A stretch of 64,000 bases of DNA from positions 285 through 64,284 of the forward strand of contig DASZRW010000112.1 in the NCBI GenBank assembly GCA_035549015.1. Direction: 5' to 3'. The notes beneath the pieces were generated by a model. The model was not told where the DNA came from and did not search any database. It saw only the letters and a list, made by a program, of their open reading frames with translations. Both the position numbers and the translations under genes were made by a program. This document shows, piece after piece, positions 7,294-53,139 of the stretch (the first letter of the stretch is position 1; each line of letters starts with the position of its first letter). This DNA is from Candidatus Kapaibacterium sp. (GTDB taxonomy: Bacteria; Bacteroidota; Ignavibacteria; OLB7).

Positions 7294-11217
<3,924 letters not shown>

Positions 11218-22555: not shown

Positions 22556-22829
22556 GGTCGGGCCTTGTCTCGGTAATCGTGCAAACCGGTACGGTGTACG
22601 TGCGTGATGGCACTGCGCACGAATGCAGCAGCATTGCTCGTGGAGAAACGAGCATCGTTCCCGCTGGGGAGTATAGACGATGTCAGGCGAGCGCTGTGGT
22701 GTAATAATCGAACGATTCGTGGTTCGGCCGGCTGTGCCAAGCCATGAATCGTCGGCAAAGCTATACGCAAATCATGGGCAAGTCAAGGGGCACCACGAAT
22801 ACCTCCGGGAGGTCCTCACCGCCATCATG

Positions 22830-22960: not shown

Positions 22961-23700
22961 GGAGAGCGGACAGGGAAGATCCAGGTATGTGACGGGCGTC
23001 CCGAAGGCTCCGGCAGGCTCTGCGAAGGAACGGAAGCGCCACGGGCCATCCCGCGGCCCATCGCGCAATCATACCGGCTGCCGGATCGGTTGTCCCGGAG
23101 CCAGCCATCCCCGGTCATCACCAACATGCTCACCTGATGATGGAGCAGTAGCTGCCCGCGGCTGAGCGAACCAACGTCCATCCCCCCCACAGCGGAAGCT
23201 CCTGGCGGCATGTCGATTACGCTGCGACCGGTGGGATCATCTCAGGAGATGAGAAGAATCTGTCCCGACCCGGCCGAGGCCGGGAAGCCCGCCATGGCCA
23301 TCCCGATGGAATGGTTTCGATCGATACGTGCCGCCGGGACATCAGATGGGATACGGCCGCCCGACGGCCATGCGATCCGCGGTGATGAAGCATCTGAATA
23401 GTGCGCGGTGAAATCCCGTACAGCATCTATCAGACTGGACCGGTCTGTGGACCGGCAATCATATCATCCCCTTCTGCTGCGGCAGGCATGCAACGTCTGG
23501 GACATGCGCATATCCCTGCCTGCACGCAGGCGCCGGCATCGGCCGGCTTGCCAACCGGCGCGCTCGCCAACCGGCCCGCTCACCACGATTCACCGCCGCG
23601 TTCCATCTCGTGGGATTTCATAGCTTCGCGCGGATCGGTGGCCGGAAGCTCCAGGAGGCACCGCCCGCAATTCCATACAGCCCATCAAACCCGCAACATC

Positions 23701-25552: not shown

Positions 25553-28500
25553 TTACAGCGTGAAGATCACGTCGTCCAGATTCCGCAGACCGTAGGAGTT
25601 GGTCACCACCACCTTGTACCGATGGTACACCACGGCACCATCCACAAGCTTCGGAAGCGTTCCGGCATTGTACAGCATGGTGGGCGCCGTGGTTGGTGCG
25701 GCCACGAGCTTCCAGTTGCCGTTGCTCTGCATCTTGTAGAGCGCATAGGTGGACTGCACCGACGTAGCATACCAGGTCAGCACCACGTTGCGATACTCCG
25801 TGAGCGCGTTGTTCTGCAGCGGGTCATGGTAGGCATCGTATGTGGCATCGATTGCCGGCGGCACCGGGTTTGCGGAGTCCACCACATTGACCAGCACGAT
25901 CTCCGACGGGAGTGATTCGATCTCCTCGTTGCGCATCTGGCCAAGATGGAGGTAGCTCAACGGGCGCACGCCCGCAAGGCGATAGAAGATCGGCGAGCCG
26001 AACGGCGGATCGATATCGGCGAACAGATCCCGCACAATCCATCCCTCCAACGTCTGCGCCAGCGTTGCCACATCGAACGTGCCGACAAGCGTCATGGTTC
26101 GCGTGCTGGTTGCATCCGCTGCCGTGAGAGCACGATACAGCCGGATGGCAGTGATACCCTCGGCATCGGGATACGGCGTGACGGTGAAGTTCACGGACTG
26201 CTGCAGCCCGAAACCCTGCTGGGCCTCCGCCACGATCACATGACGAATCGCAGGAGCCGCGGATGGGGCTGCGTTCACCAGGCGTACGGGGCCAAGGATA
26301 TCGCTGACGGGACCAACGGCCAGTGTGTTCGAGATCTCGCGGGCACAGTAGAAGAAGATGTTCCGCGATGCTCCGTCCAGCGCGTAGTCCGTGAACCGGA
26401 TTGTTGTGCCGCTGGCCGTACGCCTCACCATCGGATAGGGATTGAAGCCCGGATCCTCCGCGGTGAGCAGTTCACCGTTGGCATCGCGTACCACGGGCTT
26501 CTGCGACGACGTGACGAGCGCATCGTCCACATCCACCAGGCTTGTCAGGATCGGACGCTCGGTAAGCGGCACCATCGCTCCGGCAATCACCTCGCGGATG
26601 TCATCCAGTGCCGAAGGGATCAGCCCCTGCGCCGGATCGCCCGGCAGACGCGACGGCACGAACGCCTTGCGATACGGCGTCGGGTGCGCGGGGTCGTCCG
26701 GGTCGGCCAGGTGCACGGGATCGAACAGCTCCGCGTCGGGATTGTCAGGCACGGGGAACGCGAAGCCGTTGTAGACCTTGAACCGGCGCGCGTTCGGGCC
26801 GGTGGTATCCACCACTCCCGTTACCAGCTCGCGCCACTGGCTGATGTAGGCGTCATCGTGCGCAACACTGTTCAGGTGCGGACGGATAACGTTGTCGATC
26901 GTATCCTGCTTGTAGAGCGCGCGCAGCACTGCCTCCTCGTCGCCCCGGTAGAACACCGCTCCGTACGGCGTCCGGTTTGCAGCCACCGGCATGTCCACGG
27001 AGCAGGATGACTTGCCGTAGAAGTCCGGGCGCGTTGCATAGGCTGGCCCCGAGAGAGCGAGCGGCTTCACCGGATCGGCAACGTTGTGCGCGATCTGCAC
27101 CGCAGCCGGCGTGAGCGACGATGTGTACCCCCGCGGGCTATCCATCGAGTAGGCGGCGATGTAGGTCTGCCGCGTGGGCGCATCGCCGGTCGGCATGATG
27201 TCCGATTCGGGTATGCCGCCGGCAAGCAGATCGATGTAGCCTCGATACGATGGATGGAAGTTCATCGGCACCGTGGCAAAGCCGGTGTGCGGGCCGATGG
27301 TGTCCGAAGGATCGAAGACGTAGATCGTGAACTTCCCCTGGTCCACCAGGAACTTGATTACCTGCACCGCCTTCATGCGTCCGGATGCGGCGGGATCGGG
27401 AACGCGCACCGTACCACGATAGAACTCCACGAACCATGGGTTGTTGGGGTACTGGACGTTGTAGTCAAAGAGCATGATCGTGGGGCAGGTGATCTTGTAC
27501 ACGCCCGGAGGCGCATCGATCGCCGGCGAGCCGGGTGGAACCGTTATCGTATCCACACGCTCGAGTCTGGCGGCCGGCTCGAACAGCCCGCCCACCGTCA
27601 ACGTTCTGCTCTGGCCGTTCTCCACGAGCTGCTCCGTATATACCGGTACCTGCGGATATGGCAAGCGCGTGAAGTCCGCCAGTTGTATGACGCTGCTCGG
27701 CAGAGCCCTCCACCGCGCGGTGTTCGCAAGGTTCTCAACCACCATGAACGTAGTGCCGGCCTTCGGAGGATCGTACGCCTCGGTCTTCTTCACTCCATTC
27801 TCGTCGGTGGTCTCCATCGGCGTCAGGTGGAACCGGGCGTAATTGTTGCCGGCGGCCGTCACCTCAACCACGATGAACCGATGCGTGCTGGTGGCGAAGA
27901 TGCTCCCCACGAACACCTGCTGCGATATCTGGCTCGAGGTCACGATCGGTTCCACGGTGATCGAGCCCTTCGATGGGTCTGCCGTGAGATCCGGATATGC
28001 ATCGGCCTCCACATACACATCGCCATTCCCGGAGATCGACTGCGGGTTCTTCACCACGCCGCGTATCGATACCGGCGCATCGGTACGGAAGAAGAACTGA
28101 ACACGGTCCGCACTCTGGTAGGCGATGTTGTGCACATGATTCCAGTCGAACAGCACGCGCGTCCGCTTGCCGTGGGTTGCGATCTGCGCCTGTTCCGACA
28201 GCGACGTGAGCACCGGTGGAACCTCGCGCTGGATGTACTGCACCGCGAGGTTCGCCGGCGGGAGAAGCGAATTGTACTTCGGGAAACTCGTCGTGATCGT
28301 GTTCGAATACACCCCAATCGCAGAGGCGCGCGAGAACCAGTTGATCCCGAAGATCCCGTACCTGCGAGCGAAGTCGTTCCCCGGCAGGTTCTCGATGCGA
28401 TGCACGAATACCGGGTTACCCGTGTCCGGAATGCCGTGCAGCTCGGGATGCCCGTCCTGATCGGCATACGGAACGTATCCACTCGGCTCGTACTCACCGA

Positions 28501-31500
28501 AGTCGTTCACGGGATATACCTGCCGCCAGTCGCTCGGAGAAGTGCCGTCCGGTTTGGTGATCCGGATGCCGAACTGCATCGGCTTCGTCGCCGTACCATG
28601 ACTGAACTCCGTGGTATCGGCAAAGAAGTCTCCAACGGGAAGGTCGATCGCCACCGTTCCACGATTCACGTTCAGATAGCGTGCATCGGCATAGCGTGTG
28701 TATCCCTGGGAGTCCGTGAAGTCCTCGTGCACCAACGGCTCGATGCTGGCGATCGTCACGGGTGCCGGCAGCCGGACGTCGCTCCGCCCGGTTGGAAGCG
28801 AGAGATAACGATGCGTCATCGCGGTGATGCGTTTCGCCGGGTCAGCCGGTGTCACATACTCGGCCATGTAGATATAGCGCTGTCCGGCGGCGTCGCCGGC
28901 AAGCGGCACATCCGGATCGATCATCCCGAGCCCAAGCATTCGTGCCACGTGGTAGTCCTGTGCGGCCAACAGCAGCATGCGGAGTGCACTGATGTTGATC
29001 GAGCCGCTGTCCGTGGACAACACGGGAGCCTGCGTCAGCCACGCCTCCACCTGAGCGGGATCGACACTCCTCTGCAGGTACGACTCCACCGCCGTGCGTA
29101 TGGACTGCTTTGGATCGCGCTCGAATGCCGGGCGTGAGGGATCGTACGTGGGATCTGCATGACCGTCCGGCAGATAGTGACGGTTGGGAAGCCACCGGTC
29201 CAGGTAGTTCACCACCTTCACCCGTGGGGCCTGGCCCTCCAACGTGTGCCCGTACTTCGGCCATGCTCCGTCCACGTTGAATCGCGTTGTATCCTCCAGG
29301 CGCCTGGCAGCCTCCGTGGTATCCAGTGTCAGCGCATAGTTCCCGATCTTCTTCCAGAGGTACCGGCGATGCGTGGCGGTATAGAAGTCCGCATAGGTTT
29401 CCACCAGCAACGCGCCAGGCGCCCCACCCGAATAGCGGAACCGGAAGTATTGCACGGCCTCGCTCATCACCTTGTGGCGGGTGCCATTCCCCACGAAGCG
29501 CCTGCGCGCGGAGATGAACAGCGGGGCAGCGGCCGCCGAGGGATCCTCGTTGAGCGATATCGCCTCCACACGCGTCGTCATCGCCGCAAGCGACGGCGAC
29601 GTGAGCTCGAACGCAAACATCAGGTTCAGGTCCGTCTCCACCTCCACCGTACCGGTGAAGTTCGCAACGATGTAGGCCACGTCCGCTCCAACGTTCTTCG
29701 GATCGGTCGGCGTGTTGTTCTGGCGCAGCGTCCGGTACGATCCGTCGTCGACAAACCGCAGCGTCAGCGTAACAACGGCCGAGGGGAACAACTGCCTGTC
29801 CACCTGAACGTTCGTATACGTCCAGGTCCAGACACCGCCGTCCTGCGAGACATCTGTGGGACGTTGCTGTGTGGTGGCGCTGAGATCGATCGTGGCCGGG
29901 AAGTACTTCGTTGTATCGGTATCCACGTAGCGCGTGCGATAGATCGCCACGTAATCGTCCGGCTTGTTGTACCCGTACGACGCGAAGTATGGGCTTCCCG
30001 GGCGTGTGTACGGTCCCTTCGGCAGATGACGATTCCCGAGGTCGTTCAGGAACGCCCAGCGCAGGTGCACGCCTCCGGCGCTGCCGTCGCCGCCGTTGTT
30101 GAATCCGTCGGAACCAACAGCCTGCAGGTAAAGGAACTGCGACTGGATGGTGTAGGCCTGCGTATCCTCCTCGCCGCATACATTGCGGCCGACTGCATAG
30201 AGCTTGCTGCGAAGCAGCACGGTTGCCTGGCGCAACTGATCGAGCACCGGGGCGAAGTATGCTACCACCGCGGCATCGGGCGAGCTGCAGCGCAGGCAGT
30301 AGGCGGTGAAGAAGCTGATCGCCACCCGCGCCCGCATGCAGGTTGTAGTGGCGCATGGATCGTCCGCGATCGGCAGGCCAAGCAGCACCGCCTTCGGGAT
30401 CACGAGCGCGTAGAGCGCATCGATCGCCGTACGCAGATCGCTTGGATTCCCCTCCACAAGGTTCACCAGGTCCGTTGCGCCGGCGCGTTCCTGGGCGCTC
30501 ATCCCTCCCACCATCGCACATGCCTTGCAGATGCATTCCAGCAGCTCCAGCCAGTCGTGGCGGAACGCCGTCATGGCCGTTTCCGGCCGCGGCAGGTCGT
30601 TGGCGATCGTGGCTGCGTATGCGGCCGACTGCGCCGCAAGCTGTGCATCCAGATAGTCCACAACCACGCGGGCCTGTGGGGCAAGCTCCTGATACCGTGA
30701 GAATGCCGTGGCCAGCAGGTCCACAACGAACTCCAGCCGGTTGCAGAAGGCGCCGCCGGGAAGCATGGTCTGCGTCAGCCGCAGATTCCGCGCGAGCGAT
30801 GCGATCTCCTGCTGCGTGCGCGTGAAGATGTCCTCCAACGCAATCACCGCCGGCGCACCGGAGGGGGGATCGACGCCGCAGAGCAGATCGGAGTAGCCAA
30901 CGAGACCGTGCAGGTGCGCGCAGATATCAACGGACTCCGCGCAGAACACGACGCCGGCCGCAGCCAGTTGGGCTGTCCACGTGGCATAATCGGCAATGAA
31001 CGTGGCGAGCCCGGAGTTCAGAAGCGTTGCCACGCCGCTCGGCATCGTGCGGCACGGTCCGCATGTCAGATGCAGTGTCCGCAGCACTTCGAAGAGCTTG
31101 TACGCATCGCCGGATGCCAGGCTGGAGGATGGAGCACCGGCGCCGGCTGGAGCGGGCGTGATTGCGTTGAAGAGTGCCGTGATCCGCGAGGAGAACAACG
31201 AGGTGAAGCTCGCCCGCAACGTCGAAGACAACTCGCCGAACCGTAGCGCCGCCACGTACAGGCACTCCAGTCTCCATATCCAGGAGGGGCAGGTGTCGGT
31301 GCAGGTGCCGGTGAACGTGGCGCCGAGCTGCGTGCGCAGACGGTCGTACTCGCCTCGGAGCTGCACGTACTGCGCTTCGAGCTGCGTGCGCTGCGCCGAG
31401 GGAATCGAAAGTCCGTACATGCACGCGAGGCCGAGGAATACCGTGGAGCGCCGAAGCAGCTCGCAGCAGTCCGTGGGGGGCGAGCCAGCGGCGCTCATGG

Positions 31501-34500
31501 GAATGGCGCTCGTATACGGACTCGTGGAGGCGGCCGCCAGCGTCTGATAGATGGCCATGATGTCATCGCAGATCACCGCGTCGAACTGCGTCAACGTTCC
31601 GGGATCGTTCCCCGAAGCCGGCCGGCGCAGCTTGCACAGCTTGCAGAGACAGACGAACAGCGCGAACCAGCGATCGCAGTCCACACAGCTCGCGGCGCAC
31701 GCTACCGGCTTCTCCGCGAGCTGCGGAGCGAGCGTGGCAAGGCTCGCGCAGACACGCGTGATGAAGCAGTCCAGCGACCGACGCACGTATGGGGAGACAC
31801 GGCGGCTGCCGGAGTACACCACCATCGCGAACCCGAACATCACGCGCAGACGCTCGCACAACGACGGGCCGGTGCCCGGAAGCACGCTGGCACCGATCCC
31901 GGTCTCGAGCTGGAGACGGGGCGTAAGCTGTTCGATGCAGGAAAGGCTGGCCTGGAGCTGAATCATCGCCGAGGTGGACCAGATCGAATCCCCCACCGGG
32001 ATATCCACGCAGCAGAGCATGCGGTACATGCGCGGGATCATCGTGAGCTTGTCGCAATCGGCATCAAAGGCCGCGCACGGATCGGAGACGGTGGTCCCCG
32101 CGTTGCAGCAGCTGTCGCTCATCAGACTCCCGGTGGCGCAGCTGATGCTGCCGTCGCCGCCGAAGAACATGTTCGTCGCATAGAGGTTGTGCACCTCGGC
32201 GCGAAGGCAGTGGCGTCCCGGACCGAGATAGAGGGCGATGTCGAACGTCTCGTTGTTGACCATGATCTGCGGCGCCACGGAGTGCACCAGCGTTCCGTCA
32301 ACGTAGATGTCTGCGTAGTCGTCCGCGAAGTACGTGAACGTGATGCGCACGTCGCTGGCGCGGCAGAGACAGAAGCAGCGCTCGAACATCGTTATGCCGA
32401 TGTGGCTGTCGGACGCGCTGGCGTTCAGGGAAATCCAATGCGAGCTCCCGATCACCGGTCGCGATGTACCGCTGGTCACCGTCACCGTAGCCTGCGCAGG
32501 ATTCTTCACCTGGTCATCCACCGTGGTCATCACCCACGGCGCCGTGCCGGTAGCGAGCGTCAACTGCGGTATCGTGCAGCTCGTGCCGCAGAACGGAAGG
32601 CCGTCGTACACATCCTGCACCTGATCCATCTGGGCCTGCAGGTAGGAAACAGTGCCGGAGTCCATGCTGTCGCAGCAGGCGCAGTGTGTTGCGAACCAGT
32701 CGAGCAGGCTTCGGTGAATGTAGGCCCAGCGGTCGATCCCCTGTGCCATGCCGGCAAGCGCCGGATCCGTGGTCACGGTGGTATAGGTCCCTTCCACCAA
32801 CGTTCCCACACCCGTGTTGATGGCGTTCACCGTCTCGGCATAGGTGGGATTCGTCACGTCCGTGTAATAGCGATCGTGATGGCTCACGATGCAGTCCAGC
32901 ACGACGATCCAGTCCTCGCAGAGCGTGTTGACGTTGGAGCAGAGCTCCGGATGCGCATTGTTGAAGGCCGCGTAGGCGTCTGCGAACGCATCCATGAGCG
33001 CATTGAGCGCTGCAAGAAGAATGGGATCGATGCTGCCATGCTCGCAGAGCGAACGGAGGCGTGAGAGAATGGCGGAGAGCTTGGCGCAGAGCATCGCAAA
33101 CGATGGAGTCGTGGCCGGCGGTGCGTAGAGGTTCGAGCCATCGTTGAGCAACCAGTCCAGCTGATCGATGATCGCCCCGAGATCGTCCACGAAGTCATCG
33201 ATCACATCCTGCGGCAGAATCGTCCGCTGGCCGCAATACTTCTTCAGGCAGCGAAGCTTCGGCAGCCAGTTGTCGCACCATCCTGAGGGAATGGAGGTGC
33301 TCGTGCTGCACAGGTTCGGATAGGCCGCCTGGAGCGCATCGACTGCGCTCTGCAACTGCTGCAGCAGGGTCTTCAGGGTGATCAACAGAATCGGATCGAC
33401 GCCGTTTGCGCAGTAGGTGGTGATGTCGCTCTGGATGGTGGAGACCTTCAGGCAGAACAACGCGATGTCATCCAGTTCCGCGGGATCGCTCCGCCCTGGA
33501 ACCGAGTGGTAGATGGCGTCGACGGCAGCGCCCAGCTTGTTGAGCACGGTGGTGCGCAGGTCGTCGGTAAGAATGGCCTTCTCCGAGCAGATGCGCGAGA
33601 GGCAGCCGAGGAGCGAGTTCCACGTGCTGCAATCGGTCATCGGAACCGTGTCCGCACAGATGTCGCCGTAGGTGGCCTTGACTCCCGTCATCGACGACTC
33701 CAACCCCACGAGCAGGTTGTCGAGCTGCGTACGGCGGTTGTGCGACCACGGGAAGAGCGCCTTTGTGCAGAGGAAGGTGAAGTATCCGTCCAAAGTCTGC
33801 ACCATCTGGCAGAGCTGGCTGATATCATGATTCAACTGCCCCACGGGCGGCCGCATATTCAGGAACGTATACGCCGAGGCGAGCTGCGCGTTCAGTGCCG
33901 TGTAGAGTGCGTTCTGCAGCGAGCCGGGGAGCGTCGCCCACTTGTCGCAGAGCTTCTTCAGGCAGTCCAGCAGATCGAGCCAGCGCTTGCAGTAATCCTT
34001 CTCCGGCGGCCGGCAGAGCGTAAGGCTCTCACCTTCCATCACATCGCTCAGCAGTTGCCGCTTGTCGTACAGCCGCGTATACCAGGGTTCGATCGTGGCG
34101 GCCCACGGCGGCAGCGTCAGACGGCTTGCGCCGCACACACGACACCACCAGGCCCAGAAGCTGACGATGTAGCTCAACCGGTCGCAGTCGCTCGAGGGCG
34201 CCGGCGAGATCCAGCCCGGCATTCCCTCGCCTACGGCAATTCCCTGGATCTGCGGGAAGAGGCTGTTCACATCGGCTGCGATGTTGCCGTCGTAGTAGGT
34301 GGTGACGTCCGAGGGAAGCGACGGGCGCCGCGCGCAGAACCGGCAGAAACAATCCAGCAGATCGCGCCAGCGCTTGCAGAGGTCCATGATCTGCGGATCG
34401 ATCACGAGATAGCTCACCGCCACCACGTTCTCGAACGCCTCCTCGTACGGCGAGGTGAAGTCCTCGATAGTATAGCGCTGCGCCCATGTCAACGTGCTCA

Positions 34501-35140: not shown

Positions 35141-35361
35141 GTCGTTCTGTTGGGTTGCTGCACGTTGATGTGGTCGTACTTCGTACCGCCGGAAAAGCCG
35201 GCGGCATCGCGGCGTCCGAAGCGCACGGATGGTTCGCCAATGTGGCCGATGCCGAATGCTGCAGTGTTACGTGATGCCGGCCGAGTGGTTGATTACACGA
35301 GGTCTCGGAGCTGACCGGCACGGTGGCGCGCCGATGCCCCGGCGCGCCACCCACGGGTTGG

Positions 35362-43773: not shown

Positions 43774-43895
43774 CCTCGTGGCGGCCGGACCGGCACTTCG
43801 GGTCCGGCCGCCGGGAAATCGGATCCGAGCGTTCCTGTCTATCGTCGCTGCAAGGCCGGCAGGCAGGCCATTGCCGCATGGGGTTGCCGGGAACT

Positions 43896-46800
43896 CTAGA
43901 TCGCGTCCGCGATGACCTTGAGGATCTCGAGAACTTTTAATACGAGAGCACTTGTTTTGGATACATCGAGATCCTCCCCTGCCCCCTGAAGCATGGCAAC
44001 GTGCAAATGCCCGGTCCGGAGCGTCGGATTATCCCTGGTGCGCATCAATGCCACTCGGTAGAAGATCTCATTGGAATAGTAGTTCCCGCCGGAACCGGCA
44101 ATCGACATGATATTACCGGTGATGAGGTTGGGAGTCTTCAACCCCGTGACTTCATTCTCAACCAGCACACGATTGGTTCGGAGACGCTTTGTGGGGTCAT
44201 TAAAGTCCCACTTTACCGCGGCTTGCGGCTTCTGGTCGAAATCCACGTATTCGAAGGTCTGATTGAAATACAACCCCTGGACGATGGGCTGTCCTCCGCT
44301 CTGCGGGAACAGAGCATCATACGGCAGCGTCGTCTCGTAGAATTCCTTTCCGGCGGGATCGGGGGGAAACGCTTCATCCCTGACATTGTTGTTGTCCAAG
44401 ACGATGTGGGATCGATCTGTTCTGCCGCGGCACGGGAACCGATCGATCCAGTACTCACCAGGCCTTCCCTGACTTATCGTCACGATTGCATCCACATGAT
44501 GGTCGTCATCGACAGCCTGTATGTACGGTTCGAAGAAATTCTCGACCACCATGTTATTGAAATCATCAGCGCGAACCGGGAATATCGCCCCACGAATATC
44601 GAGCCGTTTTCCTCCCGGCGTGGTATAATTACGATTCATGAGGTTCAACACGGCTACGCCGGATGGATTGCTCTGCCGGATGTTCGAATATCCATGTATT
44701 GGCGTCAGGAAAAACGGATCGAATCCGGATATCAGGATGCGCTTGGCAGTTGTACTTCGTCCGACCGGCCATGCTGTACTCTGCGGCGAGAACCCGCGCG
44801 AACACCCCTCGAGGAAACTCAACAGGGCATCGATGTTTTTCGGACCGATATCCTTCAAGGCGGCACTCATCGCCAATCGCGCCCAGTAGAGCTGCCTGTC
44901 ATCGTACGTTGTATCCGCATTCCCTCGGACCGTTTCAAGGAGATCATAGGCTCGCTGCTTCACCGCATCGCGCATGTCATTGAAGGATGCCCCGGATGTT
45001 TCAAGCCCCTGGAGCGCCGTCGAGAACTGAGCGATTTTACTCTTGATGGCCGGCGTCAGAATATCGTTCTGCGGGATGGTCTCACTGACGTAGACATTCT
45101 CCTCGATTGAGCAGCCGGCATGCGGCTGCGGCGTCTGAGGCTCGACGGTTGCAAACGCCTGCGAGGTGAACAGCAGGCCATCGACGCTGTAGACGTAAAT
45201 ATCGCTGCCGGAGGCAGGAAAGACCGTCAACTGCAGGTGGCGCCCGGTAACGGCCGTATCAATTCCCGTCCCCCAGCCTCGCACACCAAGCCGATATTTC
45301 TGGCAACCTTCTCCGATAGCCCCAACGGGATCGAGAACGATATATCGGGCATGATGCGGACTGAATCCGGCAAGGGCGGCAAGTGCATCGTGCTGAGCCT
45401 GCGTAAGGCCCAGTGCAAGAATGTTCTTGCGTGACAACGAAGGTGTGGACGGAATGTCCACCAGCTGAAACGTCTTTACGGCCGTCCCGTCCGTGATCTC
45501 CTGTTCCACCAACAACAGATGCCCGAGCTGCTGCACCAGAACCTGCAGGAAACTCTTCGGCCCGCTCGTACTGTTTACCGAACCGCCCGGTAGCTGAGCT
45601 ATCTGCGGTGGTGTCATGCCGATCGCCGGCACGTAGTCGGTGGCGATCGCGAAGTGTACCACGTTCGCCGCTCCCGATTCGAACGCAATCCCTCGCTCGC
45701 TCACCGTCGCAACTTCCACTCCAGCCACCGCACCGGCTCCGACAAACGTTCGATCGCCCATCGAATTCCACGTTACGGCATTCGATGTTCCTGCACCCGA
45801 GGCCGGTATTGCCCACTGCGACGTTGCAGAGAGCGGCCCGAACACGAAGTTGGTGTACTCCCCAACAGATGGAAGCGGCACCGAGTCCGGAGAGAGCGGG
45901 AGGAAGATGGGCGTATCTGATTGCCTGAAATAGTGGATCCGAACCAGCCCGCCAATATTGATGCGGTTCCCCGGCGTGGCCGCCTGCCGGTTGGGAACCG
46001 CGAGCGCCACCGGCTGCGTCCATTCCACATTTGCTCCCGTGCCAAGCATGTTTTCATCGAGGATCCGGCCAACAACTGCGCGGGATGCAATGACCGCGCC
46101 ATCCACGTGCATCAGCGGCTTGTGGTTGTCTTCAATCCGGAGCTTGAGATAGAACGCATTCATCGCCTCCGCTGTGGTTGCCGTCACGGTTGTTGCGATA
46201 ATCGGCCAGCCACCCGAGCCATAGACCGACTGGGCCATCGTGGCGCCGGGTGCAAGGCCGAACTGAAGATTGTTCCGTTCGGCGCCGGTTACATCGTGCC
46301 CATAGTTGCCGTAGTAGTCGTACGCGTAGCCCGCCTCGTTGCGAATGTCGATGTAGAGCGTATCGCACGTGTGGAAGCGCGAAAGCAGGTCCGTGTAGAG
46401 ATACTCCTCCTTCTTCGGCGGAAATGGAATCGCATGCATATACACGCCTGCATAGTAATGCATGGCATAGTATGTGGCAGGATCGATATAGCGGTGGATC
46501 TCCTCGCGCCTGAACTGGAGTTCCAACGGATCAGTCACCTTTGAAAGATCGATCTCGTACACCGGCTGCCGCACGTAGTCCAGCGTGAGATCGGAGGCGT
46601 CGTTGTCCAGAACGATCTCGAAGCCGATGCGATTGGCATCGAAGTGCCCGAGAAGCATACCGCGATCCGCCACCGCAAGCTGGAATCCCGATGTGGGCGT
46701 CACCGATGAATCCACATGGAAGAACAGACTGTCCAGCGTGGTGGTTCCCGCCTGACTGGGATCCCAGCCGAGCACCTTCGCAAGAACGGGGTTGCTGGGG

Positions 46801-49800
46801 TTGATGTGAAGCGCCGCCGCCATGGCAGCATCAGCGGTATATATTGCCTGGATGAACTGCGTAGCTCCTGCCGAGGGGACGAGATTCGTTTCCGTAGCGC
46901 CGAGGAAGTCGGATTTGCGAAGGCCACGATAGACGAAGTACTTCACCGTGAACGATCCCATCGCCGTCTGCTCGATCGGCCTCAGCACCAGGTTGACGTG
47001 ATCGTTGTCCACCTTCTGAATGATCACGGTTCCACGAGTAGCGGCATAGGCCTCGACATCCGAGGATGTGCTGCTGACGAAGGAACTGGTAACGCGGAAC
47101 TTCGTGAGGCCCTTCGGGCCGAATGCATCATCGGGCACCTGATTCCTGACGCTCGCCATGTTGGCAAACTCGTGGAGCTTCGAGAGCGGCTTCTGGCTGC
47201 GAAGCTGGGTCTCCGACGGCACTCCCTCGAGCGCAGCCACCGAGACGGTATGCACCTTCTCGACACGCAGGCTGGCACCGGATCCGATACGCGCGGTAAT
47301 CGCAATCGTACTGCCGTTCTGCGCATTGGATAGTGTAAGGTTTCCGAGGAACGTTGCGGAGTTCGTTGAACCGGCCGCGGGCGAACTCGTTATCGTGGCC
47401 CATGTCACTGCCTGCGTGAAGCACCATACTCCCGCATAGTGATATGTGGTGCTTTCGGTGGTCCCGTCCGCCGCGGTGCGGACAAAATCAATGGAGACAT
47501 CGGGCGAACTGAAGGTTTTTACATCGACGGCTGTGATGGTGAAGGAAGTGGTAACCACTGTGCCGATTGCATCCACCTGGACCGCATCCGGCAGAACCTC
47601 GCCGCTGTTTCCGTTGAGGCCGATGTCCGCAAAGTTCAGTTTGCGATAGGTGATATTGTTGTTGTGCCCGGCGTCGGCACCGTTCATGGCACCGTCGTGC
47701 GGGCTTACATCCACCAGCAGGTACAGATCGCCGGCTGTCGTAAATCCCGACGTTGGCGGTGCCGGCCACGAGATGTTCGCCAGGTAGGTATTGCTGGCCG
47801 TAGGATCGCCTGTTGGTGCAATGACGCCGGCGGGGATTTTCGTCTCTCCCAGCAGATAGGAGCCATGGCCGCCGGTGCTGTACAATCGATTGATATCCGT
47901 GCTGAGTCCGGTGACGGAATCCACCTTGTCGTACGGAAAATCCGTGGGGAACTGGAACGCCGGATTGGCGCCGTCGGCCAGGTGAGCAATGAAGAACCGG
48001 ACAACCGCCGGCAGATTGTACAGCCCGGTTGGATCCGTATCGTTCGCTCCCATGTACACACCGCGATTGGTAATTCGTGCGCAAATCCACTTGGGATTGT
48101 CGAACACCGGAACCTGATATGGGCCCGGCTGGGTGTAGGGAACGGTGTTTGCAGCAACATCCGTTGTTGGATCGGCAATGCGCAGCCACAGATCGGGGCT
48201 GTCGATCGTATTCGATGGAGACGTTCCCGTATCGCTGAGGTTATCCCGGATCATCAGGTCGCGCAGGTCATTGCTGAAGTCGAGCGCCATCCCCACCGCA
48301 CGGTCGGCATTGATACGGCCATAGCCGTAGAAGTGATTGAAGTCCGGAATCCGTCCCCCCTTCACCGGCGTTGTCGCCGGATGCGTTCCCTTCAACCCGC
48401 GATCCACGATCATCCGCGTAGCGCTCTCGATGGAGAGGATGTACCGAATCTCCGCGTTCGTTCCGGTGTTGATCTGTATCGCCTGTCCCGCAACGAAGCT
48501 GAGCGTGGAAACAACATCGATGGTAGCACCGGAAACGGCTGTGATCGTTGTCCACCCGCATTCCACGGTGGAGTTCGCCGCGTGACTGTGCGCCAGCGCA
48601 CGATCCAGCCGTACGACATTGGCCCCAACGATCGCCTTGACAATTGCGCGTTCGGGAGTATGCGCGGAATCGATTCGAAGGGCATGCCCGACTGTGTACT
48701 GCGAGGCATCCGCGACATGAATTTCCGTATCCCCGACGCCGAGGGCGTCGACGATCACGTCGTTGCTGACACTCTCGAGAACCAACAACGTACTTCCACC
48801 AACCACCTCGATCACCGGATTATTGTTGCGATCGAACCATTTCCCGGCGCCGGGAGCGGAACTGTTTTCCGGCTGCCCTGTTCCGGTGTTCAGGAGATCG
48901 ATCTTGTCTGCCGACCGGCGAAGAATATCACGCGCCTCCCAGAAGGTAAGCCGTGAGGTATTGGTCTGCGGATCGATCTGTGCCGACAGCACCAGAGCGG
49001 CAACGCCGGCTGCCAGCGGGCAGGACATCGAGGTGCCTCCGTAGCCATTGGAGTACGATGGTGTGCCGCCAACCACCGTGGATCCTATCCCATGGGTGAA
49101 CTGCAGATGGTCGTTGATACTGATCTGGGTGGGGGAGGTAACGTTGGAATCGATGAGTTCTCCATCGGCACCATCCGCGGTCGCCGCAAATGCTCCGTTC
49201 TTTCCATCGACGGAATGGACATTCGTTTTTCCTGCCGCGTCGATCATCAATCCCTGCCCCTTCCAGAATCCCGCCGTGCACTCCACCGTGATCGAGCCAT
49301 CGCCGTGATTACCGATTGCCGTAAGCGTTGTAGCCAGTGTTGCGGACCCCTTCGGTCCCCCCAGGAAATAGATGTGCGTCGGCGAGAGGAAGCTGCTGCT
49401 GAAGACCGCATCGATTGCCGCCGTCAGCGTGAGCTGGTTGCCGGATCCATTGGCCGCGAGCTGACGGATTTTGCATGTGGACTGCGCAGGATCACCAACC
49501 AGAATCCATTGATCCTTGAAGAAGCCATCGCTCGAACCCACATGAAGCACCGTGTCCGTTGCAACGGTATCCTGCGAGAGATTGGTCATCGACTTCGAAA
49601 GTGCACGCACCCGTACTCCGCACCCCAGCGCCGCCCCAACCGCCTCGTTCAATTCGATCCGGCGCCCCGAGAATACCGTCTTCACCGTATGCAGAGCATT
49701 GGGCCCTGGATCGCCGATCATGATCGTTTGATCGGGAACGAATCCGGTTGCGTGTTCCAGTCCGATAATGGTGTCGGTACTGAGTGTGGCCACCCATATC

Positions 49801-51701
49801 GTGGTATCGACATATCCGGCATCGGCCGCCATTATCCCTTCCTGCACGCAGGCCGTGGTAATGCCTCGCCAGTAGCTGAGCGGAGTATTCCTCTTTGGAC
49901 TTCCATACGATCCGTTATCGCAGGGAGCACAGATCTCGAGTCCCTGCCGGGCGTCGGCAATGGAGGAATAACTGGCTGATGTCGACAACCGCTCAACCAG
50001 GCTTCCATCGTGGTCCACACTCTCCACATTGAGTGAGGCTCCTCCCACCCCCACCACTTCATCCTCGAAGCAGATTCGCTGCTCGTCCCGCACGAGGTGC
50101 GAGCTTGCATTTCGGTCTCCCACGGCAAAGAGAACAAGCCCGCCGCGACCGGCACGCCCGTAGCGGGCCACGATCTGCAACGCCCGCTGCGTCCCGTCTG
50201 TGACCGTATACCCCAGCGCGTCCCATTGGTAGCTGTTAGTACAGATATCCGCGGACGGCACGTTGGAGAGCGAGGAGAGGGCCGGCGGGAGGTCGCTGTA
50301 GGCACGTCCGGATGGGAACGAAGCCCAGAGGGTGGTGCTCCACGTGAACGAGTAGCCGAACATCCACTGAAAAGTCTCCGCCTTCGAATTCTGGCTTTCC
50401 GCGCGCAGCACAACAAGCGCGCGGGAATTTCCGGCTACGCCGGCCGTTCCCTGCCCGTCGTTGGTGGACGCAGCGATCAGCCCCAACGCCTGCGTGCCAT
50501 GCTGGCGGTAAATCTCGTCGCTACCGGAATTACCGGGCCACGGCGAAACATGGTGATCCGGATAGAAGCGGGTGAAGTCATAGTAGTATGCGATGCGCGG
50601 GCTTCCTCCGGTAACGTTCCCAAGCAACGCCGGATGCCGGGGAACAGTCAGCCCCGAATCGATGTCCACTTCGGACTCGGTTCCGAAATCGACTGCAGCA
50701 ACGCAGATGTGCTCGCTGCCGAACGTGATATCGCCGGCACTTCCCAACGAGACGCCTGCCGCTGTCCTCAACCGCTGCCACGCCTTCGCCACCTGCATGA
50801 CGCGAAGATGCCACTGGTCCGGATAGAGCGTATCGGGATTGGTCAACGAGAGATCGCTGACCGGCGCGAACAACGGGAGGTCGCGCGTGGAACTCACTCC
50901 CTGTTCCGCGCGCTCCACCAGGCCGGAGTCCACAAGCATGCGGCAGAGCGCAAGTGCCGTGGTATCGGGCACCACGCGAACCAGGACGTGGCCCGGATTG
51001 GAGGAAGGCCGTGCGATGAGCGGAAGCCCATGCTGCTGCAGAAGAATGTCAACCGCATCGGCGTTCAGGTCCGCGCGGAACCAGAGCATGAGCTGGTCGC
51101 CGAGATACGACACCCCGTGCGTATCGTGCTCCACCACCAATGCCGCCGATGCGATCGGCTCCTCCGCACGCAGTCGCTGGAGGACTGCCGGGAGTTCATC
51201 ACCTGAAACGGTGGCGGAGGTCCGCCCAAGCACCAGCGGTCGCAACCGGGTTTCGGAGTCCATGTCGAGTTCGATGCCGACGGAGGCAGCCGCAGCAGCC
51301 AGTTCCGCCTGGGTTGCCTCGGGAGCCGGCATCACCACGACTTCGGGCTTCGCCGCCAGGTGCACCGGCCTGCGCATGGTACCGGCGTACACGTAAAAAT
51401 CGCCCGGCACGCCCAGGTGAACATATTCGTCGGAAGCACCGGCGCCGATACGAATCGTCCGCTGCTCGGATTCGAATCCACCGCACTCCACGCTCATACG
51501 GTAGACGCCGGGCGCAATACCTTCGAAGATCCAGCTTCCGGCAATCCGTTCCGCCGTATCCGGCAATGGACCCGACACGGTCTGCTGAGATGAATCGCTG
51601 CTCTCGTAAACGCGTTGCAACGCGACGGCGGCATCGGTGAGCGGCGTAAATCCACCGTCGCAAATATGTACGCTCAGCTTGGCGGTGCTCAAGGGTGTCA
51701 T
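43896..51701 (-). CDS. giant leaderless multidomain protease (2601 aa): N-terminal carboxypeptidase-regulatory-like domain, subtilisin-like S8 peptidase domain with large insertions, long beta-rich middle, C-terminal pyroglutamyl-peptidase (C15)-like domain
   Basis: CarbopepD_reg-like segment GSWIFEGIAPGVYRMSVECGGFESEQRTIRI. S8 motifs DQWHLRVMQVAKAW, ...AAVDFG..., HGTQALGLIAASTNDGQGTAGVAGNSRAL (His box), GTSMSCPLAAGVAALVLSA (Ser box). C15-like segment KRILISGFDPF...NPSG...GRPGEYWIDRFPCRG...SGGNYYSNEIFY...TGHLHVAM. Confidence 0.85.
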   Translation of the reverse strand: MTPLSTAKLSVHICDGGFTPLTDAAVALQRVYESSDSSQQTVSGPLPDTAERIAGSWIFEGIAPGVYRMSVECGGFESEQRTIRIGAGASDEYVHLGVPGDFYVYAGTMRRPVHLAAKPEVVVMPAPEATQAELAAAAASVGIELDMDSETRLRPLVLGRTSATVSGDELPAVLQRLRAEEPIASAALVVEHDTHGVSYLGDQLMLWFRADLNADAVDILLQQHGLPLIARPSSNPGHVLVRVVPDTTALALCRMLVDSGLVERAEQGVSSTRDLPLFAPVSDLSLTNPDTLYPDQWHLRVMQVAKAWQRLRTAAGVSLGSAGDITFGSEHICVAAVDFGTESEVDIDSGLTVPRHPALLGNVTGGSPRIAYYYDFTRFYPDHHVSPWPGNSGSDEIYRQHGTQALGLIAASTNDGQGTAGVAGNSRALVVLRAESQNSKAETFQWMFGYSFTWSTTLWASFPSGRAYSDLPPALSSLSNVPSADICTNSYQWDALGYTVTDGTQRALQIVARYGRAGRGGLVLFAVGDRNASSHLVRDEQRICFEDEVVGVGGASLNVESVDHDGSLVERLSTSASYSSIADARQGLEICAPCDNGSYGSPKRNTPLSYWRGITTACVQEGIMAADAGYVDTTIWVATLSTDTIIGLEHATGFVPDQTIMIGDPGPNALHTVKTVFSGRRIELNEAVGAALGCGVRVRALSKSMTNLSQDTVATDTVLHVGSSDGFFKDQWILVGDPAQSTCKIRQLAANGSGNQLTLTAAIDAVFSSSFLSPTHIYFLGGPKGSATLATTLTAIGNHGDGSITVECTAGFWKGQGLMIDAAGKTNVHSVDGKNGAFAATADGADGELIDSNVTSPTQISINDHLQFTHGIGSTVVGGTPSYSNGYGGTSMSCPLAAGVAALVLSAQIDPQTNTSRLTFWEARDILRRSADKIDLLNTGTGQPENSSAPGAGKWFDRNNNPVIEVVGGSTLLVLESVSNDVIVDALGVGDTEIHVADASQYTVGHALRIDSAHTPERAIVKAIVGANVVRLDRALAHSHAANSTVECGWTTITAVSGATIDVVSTLSFVAGQAIQINTGTNAEIRYILSIESATRMIVDRGLKGTHPATTPVKGGRIPDFNHFYGYGRINADRAVGMALDFSNDLRDLMIRDNLSDTGTSPSNTIDSPDLWLRIADPTTDVAANTVPYTQPGPYQVPVFDNPKWICARITNRGVYMGANDTDPTGLYNLPAVVRFFIAHLADGANPAFQFPTDFPYDKVDSVTGLSTDINRLYSTGGHGSYLLGETKIPAGVIAPTGDPTASNTYLANISWPAPPTSGFTTAGDLYLLVDVSPHDGAMNGADAGHNNNITYRKLNFADIGLNGNSGEVLPDAVQVDAIGTVVTTSFTITAVDVKTFSSPDVSIDFVRTAADGTTESTTYHYAGVWCFTQAVTWATITSSPAAGSTNSATFLGNLTLSNAQNGSTIAITARIGSGASLRVEKVHTVSVAALEGVPSETQLRSQKPLSKLHEFANMASVRNQVPDDAFGPKGLTKFRVTSSFVSSTSSDVEAYAATRGTVIIQKVDNDHVNLVLRPIEQTAMGSFTVKYFVYRGLRKSDFLGATETNLVPSAGATQFIQAIYTADAAMAAALHINPSNPVLAKVLGWDPSQAGTTTLDSLFFHVDSSVTPTSGFQLAVADRGMLLGHFDANRIGFEIVLDNDASDLTLDYVRQPVYEIDLSKVTDPLELQFRREEIHRYIDPATYYAMHYYAGVYMHAIPFPPKKEEYLYTDLLSRFHTCDTLYIDIRNEAGYAYDYYGNYGHDVTGAERNNLQFGLAPGATMAQSVYGSGGWPIIATTVTATTAEAMNAFYLKLRIEDNHKPLMHVDGAVIASRAVVGRILDENMLGTGANVEWTQPVALAVPNRQAATPGNRINIGGLVRIHYFRQSDTPIFLPLSPDSVPLPSVGEYTNFVFGPLSATSQWAIPASGAGTSNAVTWNSMGDRTFVGAGAVAGVEVATVSERGIAFESGAANVVHFAIATDYVPAIGMTPPQIAQLPGGSVNSTSGPKSFLQVLVQQLGHLLLVEQEITDGTAVKTFQLVDIPSTPSLSRKNILALGLTQAQHDALAALAGFSPHHARYIVLDPVGAIGEGCQKYRLGVRGWGTGIDTAVTGRHLQLTVFPASGSDIYVYSVDGLLFTSQAFATVEPQTPQPHAGCSIEENVYVSETIPQNDILTPAIKSKIAQFSTALQGLETSGASFNDMRDAVKQRAYDLLETVRGNADTTYDDRQLYWARLAMSAALKDIGPKNIDALLSFLEGCSRGFSPQSTAWPVGRSTTAKRILISGFDPFFLTPIHGYSNIRQSNPSGVAVLNLMNRNYTTPGGKRLDIRGAIFPVRADDFNNMVVENFFEPYIQAVDDDHHVDAIVTISQGRPGEYWIDRFPCRGRTDRSHIVLDNNNVRDEAFPPDPAGKEFYETTLPYDALFPQSGGQPIVQGLYFNQTFEYVDFDQKPQAAVKWDFNDPTKRLRTNRVLVENEVTGLKTPNLITGNIMSIAGSGGNYYSNEIFYRVALMRTRDNPTLRTGHLHVAMLQGAGEDLDVSKTSALVLKVLEILKVIADAI

Positions 51702-52061
51702 GGTTCGAAATGGTTGTCGTAGTGGTATCCGCTCACGGATATGGGAGAACCGCCGTGTGCATCAGTCGCCAACGGAGACATTCTTCACGGCAGAGATGGC
51801 AATGGACGCACTGCATGCCGCCATTGCGCATCTGTTCAACGTCGCTGATCAAACAGGCGCTATGGATGCGCCCGAATTATTTCGACCCGGGGTGTGCGGT
51901 GGGTACGGTGGCCGATCGATTCGGAATGGCAGTGCCGGGTTGCGTGCACGATGCCATCGTGGTATCTGCGTATGCGCCATGCTCTCATGGCACAACATGA
52001 TCATCGCATTTCGGGAACTGCGCCGCCGGCCATCATGCCGGAAGGGAGAGCAACCATCGGC

Positions 52062-52679
52062 TCAGAAGCGCGGTGTAACGTCCTCGAAAATCTCCAGCGA
52101 GATTGTTTCAACGATTCCGGCATCGGTAAGGATACGCGCCTTGTCCACGATCCCCTCTCCGATATCCTTACCGAACGAGACACCGTACCGGCGTGGATTA
52201 TGTTCATCCACTTCGAAGCCGGCAGGTGTCAGCATCCGCACTGCAGATCTGCACGCGTCGGGCGTCACGGACGATTTGAACACCACGCTGAACGATGTCG
52301 CGAATATCCCGATATCCCGACCGCGGGAGATCCGAACGATCGGACCATAGTGGTAATCCGACTGTGTACGCAGGGCCAGGAGCTCCGGTGCATGCAGGCG
52401 ATCGAACGGTTTTCCGTCGCGTCGCCGCACGATACGCATGGAGGTTGCCGCATCGCCCGAAAGGTATTTGCTGCCAACATCTTCCAGGCCCAGGCTGTCG
52501 AGCAGGCGCCGAAGGCGAACCGCACCGCTCCCCGCCGGAGACATATTGGTGGCCAACAGATATGGGAAGGAACGATATTCCCGCATCGATGTGTTATCCG
52601 GATATTCCGCGCGAATTCCCGATTCCACGGAGAAGAAACAACCGCTCATCGCCAATGCTGCCGTCATGATCAGGAGCAT
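52062..52679 (-). CDS. hypothetical lipoprotein (206 aa) immediately upstream of, and co-oriented with, the giant-gene cluster
   Basis: Lipoprotein signal MLLIMTAALAMSGC starts at ATG 52679 (Met29 of the listed ORF). A 360-nt gap separates it from the first giant gene. Confidence 0.55.
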   Translation of the reverse strand: MLLIMTAALAMSGCFFSVESGIRAEYPDNTSMREYRSFPYLLATNMSPAGSGAVRLRRLLDSLGLEDVGSKYLSGDAATSMRIVRRRDGKPFDRLHAPELLALRTQSDYHYGPIVRISRGRDIGIFATSFSVVFKSSVTPDACRSAVRMLTPAGFEVDEHNPRRYGVSFGKDIGEGIVDKARILTDAGIVETISLEIFEDVTPRF

Positions 52680-53139
52680 CGGGAGAGCCTGACGACACAC
52701 CAGAATGTGCACGGCATCACTCATCACCCGGCCTGTTGCGTTATGCAGAAAATGCACGACCATCGTGCTCCCTGCGGAGCGCCAACATACGCCGGAAGGC
52801 GGGGAGTATCAATACGGCCGGTGAAGTCTACCGAACGCGACATTCCACTGCGGAGAATGACTTCGGAGCAATCCTACGAAGCGGATTGCGCAGTTCGTTC
52901 CTGAAATAACAGCGTGCAACGCGCACGTGCAGTAACCCCAAACCATGTGAGAGGAAGTGGCTCGTTGCGAGATTGACATCCGGGGCAATGCGGTGGTTGT
53001 TTTCGACAGGGACAAAATTAGCGGCGGCCGTCGCCGAATGCAATAGCAGGTATCACGTTCGCGAAAATATTTTTCACAGACCGTGTTCCCCATGCACTCC
53101 GGACACCATCACGACTTCGAGGACCACCATCTGTACACA

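Follow-up and report, generated by a model that had tools for sequence, protein, structure and literature searches.

Three giant open reading frames (ORFs) lie head to tail on the minus strand of a stretch of DNA of 64,000 nucleotides (nt) from Candidatus Kapaibacterium sp. (contig DASZRW010000112.1), which was analysed over its whole length and is called the window here. The locus raises the question of whether the three encoded proteins, numbered 1 to 3 in their order on the minus strand, belong to one system, and what such a system would do. An earlier reading of the window, made from the letters alone (the sequence-only reading), had proposed an undescribed giant-protein system, possibly of a toxin type. 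In the present study, we found that the three giants are the local, expanded version of a three-protein cassette, A-B-C, that is conserved in Bacteroidota and Acidobacteriota. By the tests that were run, this system is no member of the Tc, MARTX, Rhs or extracellular contractile injection system (eCIS) groups, and a toxin-type role is the best reading of it. We suggest, with a probability of about one half, that A-B-C is a new antibacterial delivery complex, independent of Sec and directed at the envelope or the cell wall.

A conserved three-protein cassette

All ORFs of 74 loci were clustered, and A was found upstream of B in 64 of them and C downstream of B in 59. The genes invariably share one strand and keep the order A...B-C; the loci that fall outside these counts are mostly cut by contig ends. 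In addition, the genome from which the window comes contains a second trio on another contig (C102), with proteins of 2658, 2810 and 3201 amino acids (aa), unchanged order and strand, and 30-39% identity to the trio of the window. Synteny had been named beforehand as a check for the trio together with a lipoprotein gene upstream of it. The trio does travel together, but the lipoprotein does not, having no homologue at the C102 copy, elsewhere in the window genome or at any cassette. As far as homology searches can tell, it was therefore excluded as a component of the system.

The correspondence of the domains was obtained from four distant loci compared with the window. Their standalone gene A (725-1374 aa) aligns to protein 1 from residue 1504 on, their gene B (~2100 aa) to residues 25-1352 and 2276-2803 of protein 2, and their gene C (~1620 aa) to residues 1665-3195 of protein 3. 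An exhaustive search with the A unit (protein 1 residues 1500-2601) gave 1466 clusters at E <= 1e-3, which comprise two kinds: standalone proteins of ~1100 aa that span the unit from end to end, and giants of 2400-3000 aa whose C-terminal part is the unit. These giant forms recur in many 50%-identity clusters.

The species genome collection (~185,000 species genomes) holds 303 B loci, and 140 distant homologues of protein 2 were obtained by a word-indexed search. The carriers of B are Pedobacter, Mucilaginibacter, Chryseobacterium, Flavobacterium, Sphingobacterium, Crocinitomicaceae, Saprospiraceae, Paludibacteraceae, metagenome-assembled genomes (MAGs) of Acidobacteriota and a few others. The window genome belongs to the same phylum as Pedobacter in the taxonomy of the collection, and full-length B is present in 3 of 400 sampled genomes of this phylum. 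Six of the seven genomes in the genus contain homologues of protein 3, as does one further genus of the family; 2-4 copies are frequent. The copies within a genome are strongly diverged, and the phyletic spread is patchy. The contigs CAYVWR01 (L033, L035, L087) are placed in the genus of the window by the collection, yet their deposit bears the name 'uncultured Alphaproteobacteria', which looks wrong; the labels of other close relatives are Kapaibacteriota or Bacteroidota.

Protein 2 cannot count as entirely novel; B is by sequence probably a distant, enlarged relative of DUF6603. In the protein atlas, the lead for B was DUF6603 (0.94). PF20248 (DUF6603) has no match in protein 2 at E <= 0.1 and none in the genome at E <= 10; two B homologues (P0017 and P0034) reach 26-29 bits to this model, against a cut-off of 27. 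Furthermore, the first ~430 residues of B recur (4e-88) in a 1351-aa protein from a different genome of the phylum. This protein bears a genuine DUF6603 domain (Pfam, 3.5e-84), and its locus also encodes an A-like protein that ends in DUF6402. The partnership of A and B would thus be older than the giant form, since it is present at this smaller, true DUF6603 locus. At locus L032 (G140:C1:805000-824999), a smaller cassette consists of a 1118-aa A-like protein ending in DUF6402, proteins of 741 aa and 445 aa, a 1351-aa genuine DUF6603 protein and a protein of 963 aa; this cassette could represent an ancestral or minimal version of the system. No mention of DUF6603 or DUF6402 was found in the searchable literature.

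The C-terminal region of protein 2 matches the C-terminal parts of distant B proteins by BLASTP with E values of 1e-52 to 1e-86. The AlphaFold2 (AF2) model of residues 25-1224, built with 112 homologues, has a predicted local distance difference test (pLDDT) of 82.6 and consists of an alpha/beta and helical head of ~250 residues followed by ~50 long antiparallel beta strands, which form a huge beta-meander. Foldseek found for this model only generic beta-sheet matches (LptD, ApoB100, ushers and Rhs/teneurin) of low template modelling (TM) score (0.1-0.2). In the PDB, the single sequence of protein 2 had no match and the B profile only a chance-level serpin match. Some B and C homologues carry modules of recognition type, namely LamG, Toxin_R_bind_N, Invasin_D3 and Big_1.

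The core of C (~1530 aa) is the most conserved component of the cassette, with 66 invariant columns and insertion points near residues 2100 and 2490. It has no PDB relative, by the single sequence of protein 3 or by the C profile, and the protein atlas offered weak leads of fn3 type only, at most 0.82. The part of protein 3 that precedes the core is a helical region with the recurring motif C-x2-W-x6-C-x1-4-C every ~120 aa, and 77 of the 80 Cys residues of the protein are located within its first 1700 residues. The sequence-only reading had taken proteins 2 and 3 as paralogues through this Cys-helical repeat. The shared region is real (BLASTP 4e-11, 22% identity) and the similarity of the two proteins is limited to it; the paralogy did not hold. 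The region is an insertion in the middle of B and an N-terminal addition to C, and it is missing from the B homologues of ~2100 aa. By sequence comparison, the cores of B and C are unrelated families, and their common Cys-helical part is a clade-restricted insertion.

The Cys residues of this repeat are well kept between the two trios, 69 of 77 in protein 3 and 22 of 25 in protein 2 being shared with the C102 paralogue at an overall identity of ~35% (36% for protein 3). The repeat is restricted to close relatives of the window and one C homologue in another MAG. Across 41 related genomes, it was found only inside the B-like or C-like giant ORFs of the eight cassette-bearing genomes. An insert of ~185 aa in the helical region of protein 3 has no significant PDB match; its paralogues, found by tblastn, are located elsewhere in the genome on contigs C14, C96 and C26, with three tandem copies on C125.

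Domains of A, predicted docking on B and accessory genes

According to an AF2 model (78-sequence alignment, pLDDT 88.1, predicted TM score 0.79), the A unit begins with a LytM-fold domain, continues with a beta/helical linker and ends in a hydrolase domain of the C15 fold. In protein 1, this unit is preceded by a subtilase module.

The LytM fold comprises the first ~250 residues of the unit (model residues 7-250). By VIA-align, it is similar, with moderate Z scores of 8.3-9.9, to about ten M23/LytM structures, including LysTt72 (Z 9.9), StM23 (Z 9.6, 125 of 133 residues), DipM (9.0) and SpoIIQ (8.8) as well as lysostaphin, phi29 gp13 and EnvC. At the sequence level, the A profile does not match a genuine M23 domain of the window genome significantly (hhalign E 0.33). 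The A alignment has no matching His columns, and the only conserved candidates are D241 (99%) and H249 (87%), so that this domain may have some catalytic role. It is probably a degenerate LytM domain that binds a partner.

A candidate for this partner is B. Complex prediction with residues 1-450 of B and 1-440 of A gave a score of 0.64, and the best control gave 0.00. The 0.64 mark is reached by 58 of 80 solved complexes and by 2 of 110 mismatched pairs; solved complexes of LytM domains with partners exist, and likeness to them may explain part of the score. The prediction runs share at least 61% of contacts, and the pLDDT of the partners is at least 81. In the predicted interface, B contributes its very N-terminal end and A its LytM-like domain (A-unit residues 59-200). 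Docking of A on the N-terminus of B via its LytM-like domain is in this way supported by modelling.

The C-terminal domain of protein 1 had been described as C15-like, and this description was borne out. The similarity is weak with a single sequence; the family profile against the PDB gives an E value of 1.2e-11, and the model has the fold of pyroglutamyl-peptidase I (C15) by VIA-align (Z 21.0, root-mean-square deviation (rmsd) 3.0 A over 196 residues) and by Foldseek (probability 1.0, target TM ~0.7). Of 78 members, 55 have Ser at the nucleophile position and none has Cys, and the acid and His positions are largely kept. The combination acid-Ser-His is present in 53 of the 78, including protein 1 (D-S-H), while most of the other members (~30% of the 78), the C102 paralogue among them, have lost both Ser and His. 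Further invariant polar residues of A are R803, D829, R878, N938 and N1045. Judged by these residues, the domain appears to be a branch of the fold that uses a Ser nucleophile and in which most members are active. The C-terminal domain of A proteins is variable, being of the C15 fold, DUF6402 or a hydrolase-like domain. Pyroglutamyl-peptidase domains and subtilisin have been recorded as parts of polymorphic toxins and of toxins of the Photorhabdus virulence cassette (PVC) type (PMC3482391).

The subtilisin-type protease of protein 1 was likewise recovered, with a PF00082 match of E 3.8e-9 (36.7 bits against a cut-off of 21.8; Pfam). PF00082 was found in all 34 giant A extensions sampled, with a best E value of 8.4e-45, and the N-terminal ~1500 residues are a subtilase module in every one of them. 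The S8 triad is kept as Asp338 in 30, His401 in 32 and Ser891 in 34 of these 34 proteins, and all three residues are present in protein 1. A weak CarboxypepD_reg-like domain precedes the module, and the PDB match of the module is mirolase (2.3e-6). Thus, the S8 protease of protein 1 is active-looking by its residues. Since A has no S8 module in most lineages, the protease is an add-on and not the core logic of the cassette.

Distant cassettes of Sphingobacteriia type carry additional genes. In 19 loci, a protein of ~1000 aa (family F4) is encoded between A and B, and its C-terminal 15% is less conserved than the remainder (16% against 25% pairwise identity). A small gene always follows F4 after 3-25 nt, and the family of this small gene co-varies with the type of the F4 tip in the 19 loci. 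Co-variation of a toxin tip with an adjacent small gene is a hallmark of polymorphic toxins and their immunity proteins (PMC3482391). To judge by this pattern, F4 and the small gene are a toxin-immunity-like pair of the polymorphic kind, confined here to distant cassettes. One tip type has an invariant DTE...CxSC pattern with sub-threshold matches to deaminase toxins (E 0.02), and its small partner has a sub-threshold match to SUKH-1 immunity (E 5.9e-4). Profiles of four F4 tips and of six small proteins of family F8 found no significant PDB relative. Furthermore, one protein at the F4 position bears PG_binding_1, one locus has a gene with PG_binding_1 and Peptidase_M15_4 after C, and one gene after C encodes a GDSL lipase.

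Integrity of the locus and neighbouring genes

The features of the locus are collected in Table 1. The three giant ORFs are on the minus strand with exactly the coordinates that the sequence-only reading had given.

Table 1. Position and description of the features of the giant-protein locus and its neighbourhood, in window coordinates
Feature	Position	Strand	Description
Protein 1 (giant A protein)	43896..51701	-	2601 aa; N-terminal S8 module fused to ancestral A unit
S8 subtilase module	48282..50834	-	Protein 1 aa ~290-1140; large inserts between His401 and Ser891
LytM/M23-fold domain	46452..47186	-	Protein 1 aa ~1506-1750; predicted from AF2 model and VIA-align
C15 (pyroglutamyl-peptidase I) fold domain	43899..44747	-	Protein 1 aa ~2319-2601; triad positions Asp-Ser-His
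Hairpin in gap between proteins 1 and 2	~43779..43812	-	Perfect 12 bp, GC, no U-tract, just 3' of protein 1 stop
Protein 2 (B protein)	35362..43773	-	2803 aa by ORF; likely start Met25 at 43701, giving 2779 aa
Conserved B N-terminal region	39718..43701	-	Aa 25-1352; head and ~50 strands; 140 homologues
Cys-rich helical insertion in B	36964..39576	-	Aa ~1400-2270; clade-specific
Conserved B C-terminal region	35365..36948	-	Aa 2276-2803
Hairpin after protein 2	~35322..35352	-	Perfect 13 bp, GC, no U-tract, ~10 nt past stop codon
Protein 3	25553..35140	-	3195 aa; Cys-helical N-terminal extension and C core
Cys-rich helical repeat region of protein 3	30191..34753	-	Aa ~130-1650; by motif recurrence
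Insert in helical region	32021..32578	-	Protein 3 aa ~855-1040, ~185 aa; tblastn paralogues elsewhere in genome
C core	25556..30148	-	Aa 1665-3195; 38 homologues begin sharply at residue 1665
Lipoprotein-like ORF	52062-52763	-	Lipobox LAMSG|C; codon-position GC profile like its neighbours
Metallophosphoesterase	23401-25173	+	Convergent, between DUF4157-WHH toxin and trio
DUF4157 (eCIS_core) toxin	18983-22555	-	1190 aa, ends in Colicin-DNase/WHH nuclease

The source contig (C112) is 67 kb long and is part of a soil MAG (6.07 Mb, 98.8% complete). The region 33000-52900 of the window is spanned by one contig in each of two separately assembled runs, with no differences and even depth; both runs may be source samples of the MAG. 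Assembly chimerism of the ORFs and of their junctions, which had been named as an objection, was not borne out and is ruled out across this region by the two identical assemblies. A variant strain of the locus is present in a further sample.

The gaps between the giant ORFs are 122 nt (proteins 1 and 2) and 221 nt (proteins 2 and 3), and the first becomes 194 nt if protein 2 begins at Met25. This start is probable, because the database copy is 2779 aa long and most homologues align from residue 25. The hairpins that follow proteins 1 and 2 could be, by their sequence, U-less terminators, attenuators or mRNA-stabilising elements, and with such a hairpin in each gap, the operon proposed from the spacing of the genes stays putative; a scan of the locus for sigma-70 promoters and terminators was uninformative for this phylum.

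No signal peptide was seen in the three giants when their N-termini were inspected by eye, in agreement with the sequence-only reading. The starts of the homologues are concordant, the B homologues beginning where residue 25 of protein 2 aligns and the standalone A proteins at the A domain. As far as these sequences can be read, no member of the A, B or C family has a Sec signal. The sorting domain of the type IX secretion system (T9SS), Por_Secre_tail, has no match in the giants (Pfam), and the same model found it in a neighbour of the C102 copy. The lack of RHS, RTX, VgrG, PAAR and eCIS signatures, noted earlier from the letters, was upheld by scans of the giants with Pfam, NCBIfam, PHROGs and PADLOC, in which these families had no match; PHROGs and PADLOC gave no match for any of the four proteins, the three giants and the lipoprotein.

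The lipoprotein-like ORF is plausible as a gene. Position 52679, at which the sequence-only reading had placed the upstream end of the cluster, is Met29 of this ORF, immediately before the lipobox. On the opposite strand, a 336-aa ORF at 51894-52904 (+) is antisense to it, rich in Arg, His and Cys and without homologues, and was rejected as an antisense artefact; a high-GC artefact of this kind is a typical pick of a longest-ORF caller. Upstream of the C102 trio, there are a 285-aa CarboxypepD_reg-like protein (L026 9050-9907 (-)), with no likeness to the lipoprotein of the window, and an Ig-repeat protein of 1188 aa that bears a T9SS sorting domain (L026 10617-14183 (-)) and is also unlike it.

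The sequence-only reading had further pointed to a DUF4157-WHH toxin across a convergent metallophosphoesterase gene. The position is correct; a relation to the trio did not emerge, and this toxin is of a different effector family with 19 members in the genome. Possible partner ORFs of the toxin are located at 22825-23211 (-) and 17799-18311 (-), and no immunity gene was identified. The 19 DUF4157 proteins of the genome, together with five sheath matches on other contigs, constitute a large eCIS effector arsenal. Elsewhere in the window, at 7294-11358 (-), a 1354-aa Sortilin-Vps10/BNR protein with a LolA-like domain has a weak match to Tli3, an immunity protein of the type VI secretion system (T6SS).

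Proposed delivery complex, alternatives and known systems

In the mechanism that we propose, A, B and C would assemble in the cytoplasm into one large complex, which would leave the producer without Sec, by lysis or by another route. B and C would then bind the target cell by their variable modules of lectin-like and Ig-like type, and the hydrolases, that is, the C15-fold Ser hydrolase of A and here also the S8 protease, would be brought to its envelope or peptidoglycan. B and C would be the vehicle with the recognition modules, and the hydrolases of A, with the F4 toxins elsewhere, would be the payload; in other lineages, a polymorphic toxin would also travel with the complex as a separate protein, its gene being located between those of A and B and accompanied by an immunity gene. 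The Cys-rich helical arrays of this clade may act as a rigid spacer or shell; possible disulfide bonds within them would agree with a life outside the cell.

This delivery reading draws on the conserved order A-B-C in 74 loci and the second copy in the window genome, on the predicted binding of A and B and the persistence of their partnership in the smaller DUF6603 cassette, and on the LamG, Toxin_R_bind_N, Invasin_D3 and Big_1 modules with the multiple diverged copies and patchy spread. The cell-wall theme comes from the LytM/M23 fold of A and the accessory proteins with PG_binding_1 and Peptidase_M15_4, and the idea of a conflict system from the F4/small-gene pairs, the exchangeable C-terminal domains of A and the GDSL lipase gene. 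In addition, the conserved S8 triad and the C15 Ser and His, which are kept or lost together, point to selection on catalysis.

Several results weigh against the delivery reading. No lysis gene adjoins the trio in the window, and no export route for A-B-C was identified. The accessory families F3, F4 and F5 have no member in the window genome (tblastn), so the F4 toxin-immunity pair is missing there and an antagonistic role of the window cassette rests on the hydrolase domains of A itself. The assignments of F4 tips and small proteins to toxin and immunity families are sub-threshold and unconfirmed by family profiles. Furthermore, the M23 zinc motifs HxxxD and HxH are not recognisable in A, the HxH being opposite a consensus FGF in the sole aligned segment, and the LytM fold may for this reason be a docking module only and be silent on peptidoglycan. 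VIA-align of B gave porin-type matches with Z up to 12.4, which are generic (rmsd ~10 A) and indicate no specific fold. Finally, two distant cassettes are located beside defence-type genes, which also fits an intracellular defence.

Among the alternatives, the best is a self-directed structure of the envelope or surface, such as a giant adhesin, a fibril or a scaffold for wall remodelling, in which A would act like EnvC, NlpD or SpoIIQ, with a degenerate LytM domain that tethers or activates partners. We give it a small but real chance. It agrees with a LytM fold that lacks recognisable zinc motifs, as in EnvC and SpoIIQ, with the predicted docking of A on B, with the Ig, fn3 and LamG modules of the relatives and with the large porin-like beta-meander of B. 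However, B in full length is sparse (3 of 400 genomes), and the cassette is multi-copy at 30-40% identity, unlike housekeeping structures; the toxin-immunity-like pairs and the lipase gene would be hard to explain, and Sec and T9SS signals are missing from the proteins.

An intracellular anti-phage or abortive-infection defence follows, and we regard it as unlikely. Here, the giants would stay cytoplasmic, sense infection and release the protease or hydrolase (the F4 toxins elsewhere) to kill or arrest the cell. Protease domains are common among defence effectors in general, and the absence of signal peptides, the patchy distribution with multiple diverged copies and the genes of CBASS-like (cyclic oligonucleotide-based antiphage signalling) and SIR2-CHAT type that adjoin two distant cassettes would all suit such a role. 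The neighbours in question are CBASS-like SMODS, ThiF, JAB and DUF6602 (L029 1-4360) and SIR2_2-CHAT (L028 212-2281), and their placement suggests that the cassettes are located in conflict or defence islands. Against a defence system, PADLOC gave no match, the LamG, Invasin_D3, Big_1, Toxin_R_bind_N and PG_binding_1 modules fit an extracellular or envelope site better, and the Cys arrays, which are 90% conserved, are more easily explained as disulfides. Moreover, a tip that co-varies with a downstream small gene is the signature of secreted polymorphic toxins (PMC3482391).

That the giants are cargo or accessory proteins of the eCIS of this genome seems very improbable. Very large eCIS cargo such as Afp18 does exist, the genome has five sheath matches and 19 DUF4157 (eCIS_core) proteins, and one DUF4157 toxin is encoded 3 kb from the trio; yet DUF4157 (PF13699) is not found in the giants, the sheath genes are on other contigs and absent from the 67-kb contig and from C102, and no eCIS structural gene is among the recurrent families of the 74 cassette neighbourhoods. 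A divergent member of a described giant-toxin family (Tc ABC, MARTX, Rhs or large polymorphic toxins) is hardly credible, as the likeness of layout (three giant genes, no signal peptides, a protease) is superficial, the Rhs/teneurin shells among the weak Foldseek hits for the B model (25-1224) have a TM of ~0.05 and a probability of at most 0.16, RHS/YD, RTX, VRP1, TcA/TcB and cysteine protease domain (CPD) models gave no match in Pfam and NCBIfam, and PDB sequence searches with B and C were empty.

We return to the delivery complex, for which a bolder form can be stated, rather tentatively and with more doubt than belief. In this form, A-B-C would be a new class of Sec-independent weapon, apart from the type I to type XI secretion systems (T1-T11SS), Tc, contact-dependent inhibition (CDI) and contractile systems, in which B and C are the vehicle and the LytM-fold A is an adaptor that docks enzymes or toxins for use against rival envelopes; the Cys-helical arrays would then count as a novel structural repeat rich in disulfides, and the C15-fold domain as a novel branch, with Ser as nucleophile, of a cysteine-peptidase family. 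If the delivery reading is true, an antagonism machine without annotation is present in many soil and freshwater Bacteroidota and some Acidobacteriota, including culturable Pedobacter, Mucilaginibacter, Chryseobacterium and Flavobacterium, with an investment of ~20-26 kb per copy and often several copies. It would represent a new trafficking mode for polymorphic toxins, give a first functional context to DUF6603 and DUF6402, and establish, within the C15 peptidase fold, a lineage with a Ser nucleophile. Even without antagonism, three results are firm and new, namely the A-B-C cassette as a conserved unit, the prediction that A docks on B by its LytM-like domain, and the Cys-rich helical repeat specific to the cassette.

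The core B and C proteins match no characterised family and the architecture fits no described secretion or toxin system; A-B-C is new as a system, and its function is what we infer. The nearest in outline are the Tc (ABC) toxins of Photorhabdus, Yersinia and Serratia, which also have three adjacent genes for very large, Sec-less proteins and a presumed complex that acts outside the producer. Tc toxins depend on a lysis-type cassette for their release, and a gene with PG_binding_1 and M15 peptidase follows C in one distant A-B-C locus. Unlike Tc, A-B-C has no RHS cocoon, no TcA domains (VRP1, TcA_TcB_BD) and no toxin in a hypervariable region (HVR), and there is no kinship in sequence (Pfam, NCBIfam) or, for the modelled part of B (residues 25-1224), in fold. 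As regards MARTX and RTX toxins, Pfam and NCBIfam searches of the giants and their neighbours found no RTX or MARTX repeats or CPD in the giants and no genes of the type I secretion system (T1SS) nearby.

Polymorphic toxin systems (Zhang et al. 2012, PMC3482391) share with A-B-C the variable tip and co-varying small gene of the 19 distant cassettes, the exchangeable C-terminal domains of A, and the subtilisin and pyroglutamyl-peptidase parts. They differ in that A-B-C matches none of the modes listed there (T2SS, T5SS, T6SS, T7SS, that is, the secretion systems of types II, V, VI and VII, PVC, TcdB/TcaC, MuF and PrsW), and the window cassette is without a separate toxin-immunity pair. Pyroglutamyl peptidase I (MEROPS C15) has a Glu-Cys-His triad; the domain of A has the same fold with a Ser nucleophile and never Cys.

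The degenerate, partner-docking LytM proteins EnvC, NlpD and SpoIIQ (of SpoIIQ-SpoIIIAH) resemble A in fold (Z 8.3-9.0 to EnvC, SpoIIQ and DipM), in their zinc motifs, which are unrecognisable, and in the predicted hold on an N-terminal segment of the partner. In contrast, the domain of A is part of a cytoplasmically made protein of 1100-2600 aa and shows no significant sequence similarity (hhalign E 0.33). Finally, compared with the DUF6603 (PF20248) proteins, B is about twice as long, with an added variable middle and a conserved C-terminal part; it shares its first ~430 residues with the 1351-aa protein that bears this domain, which also has an A-like neighbour.

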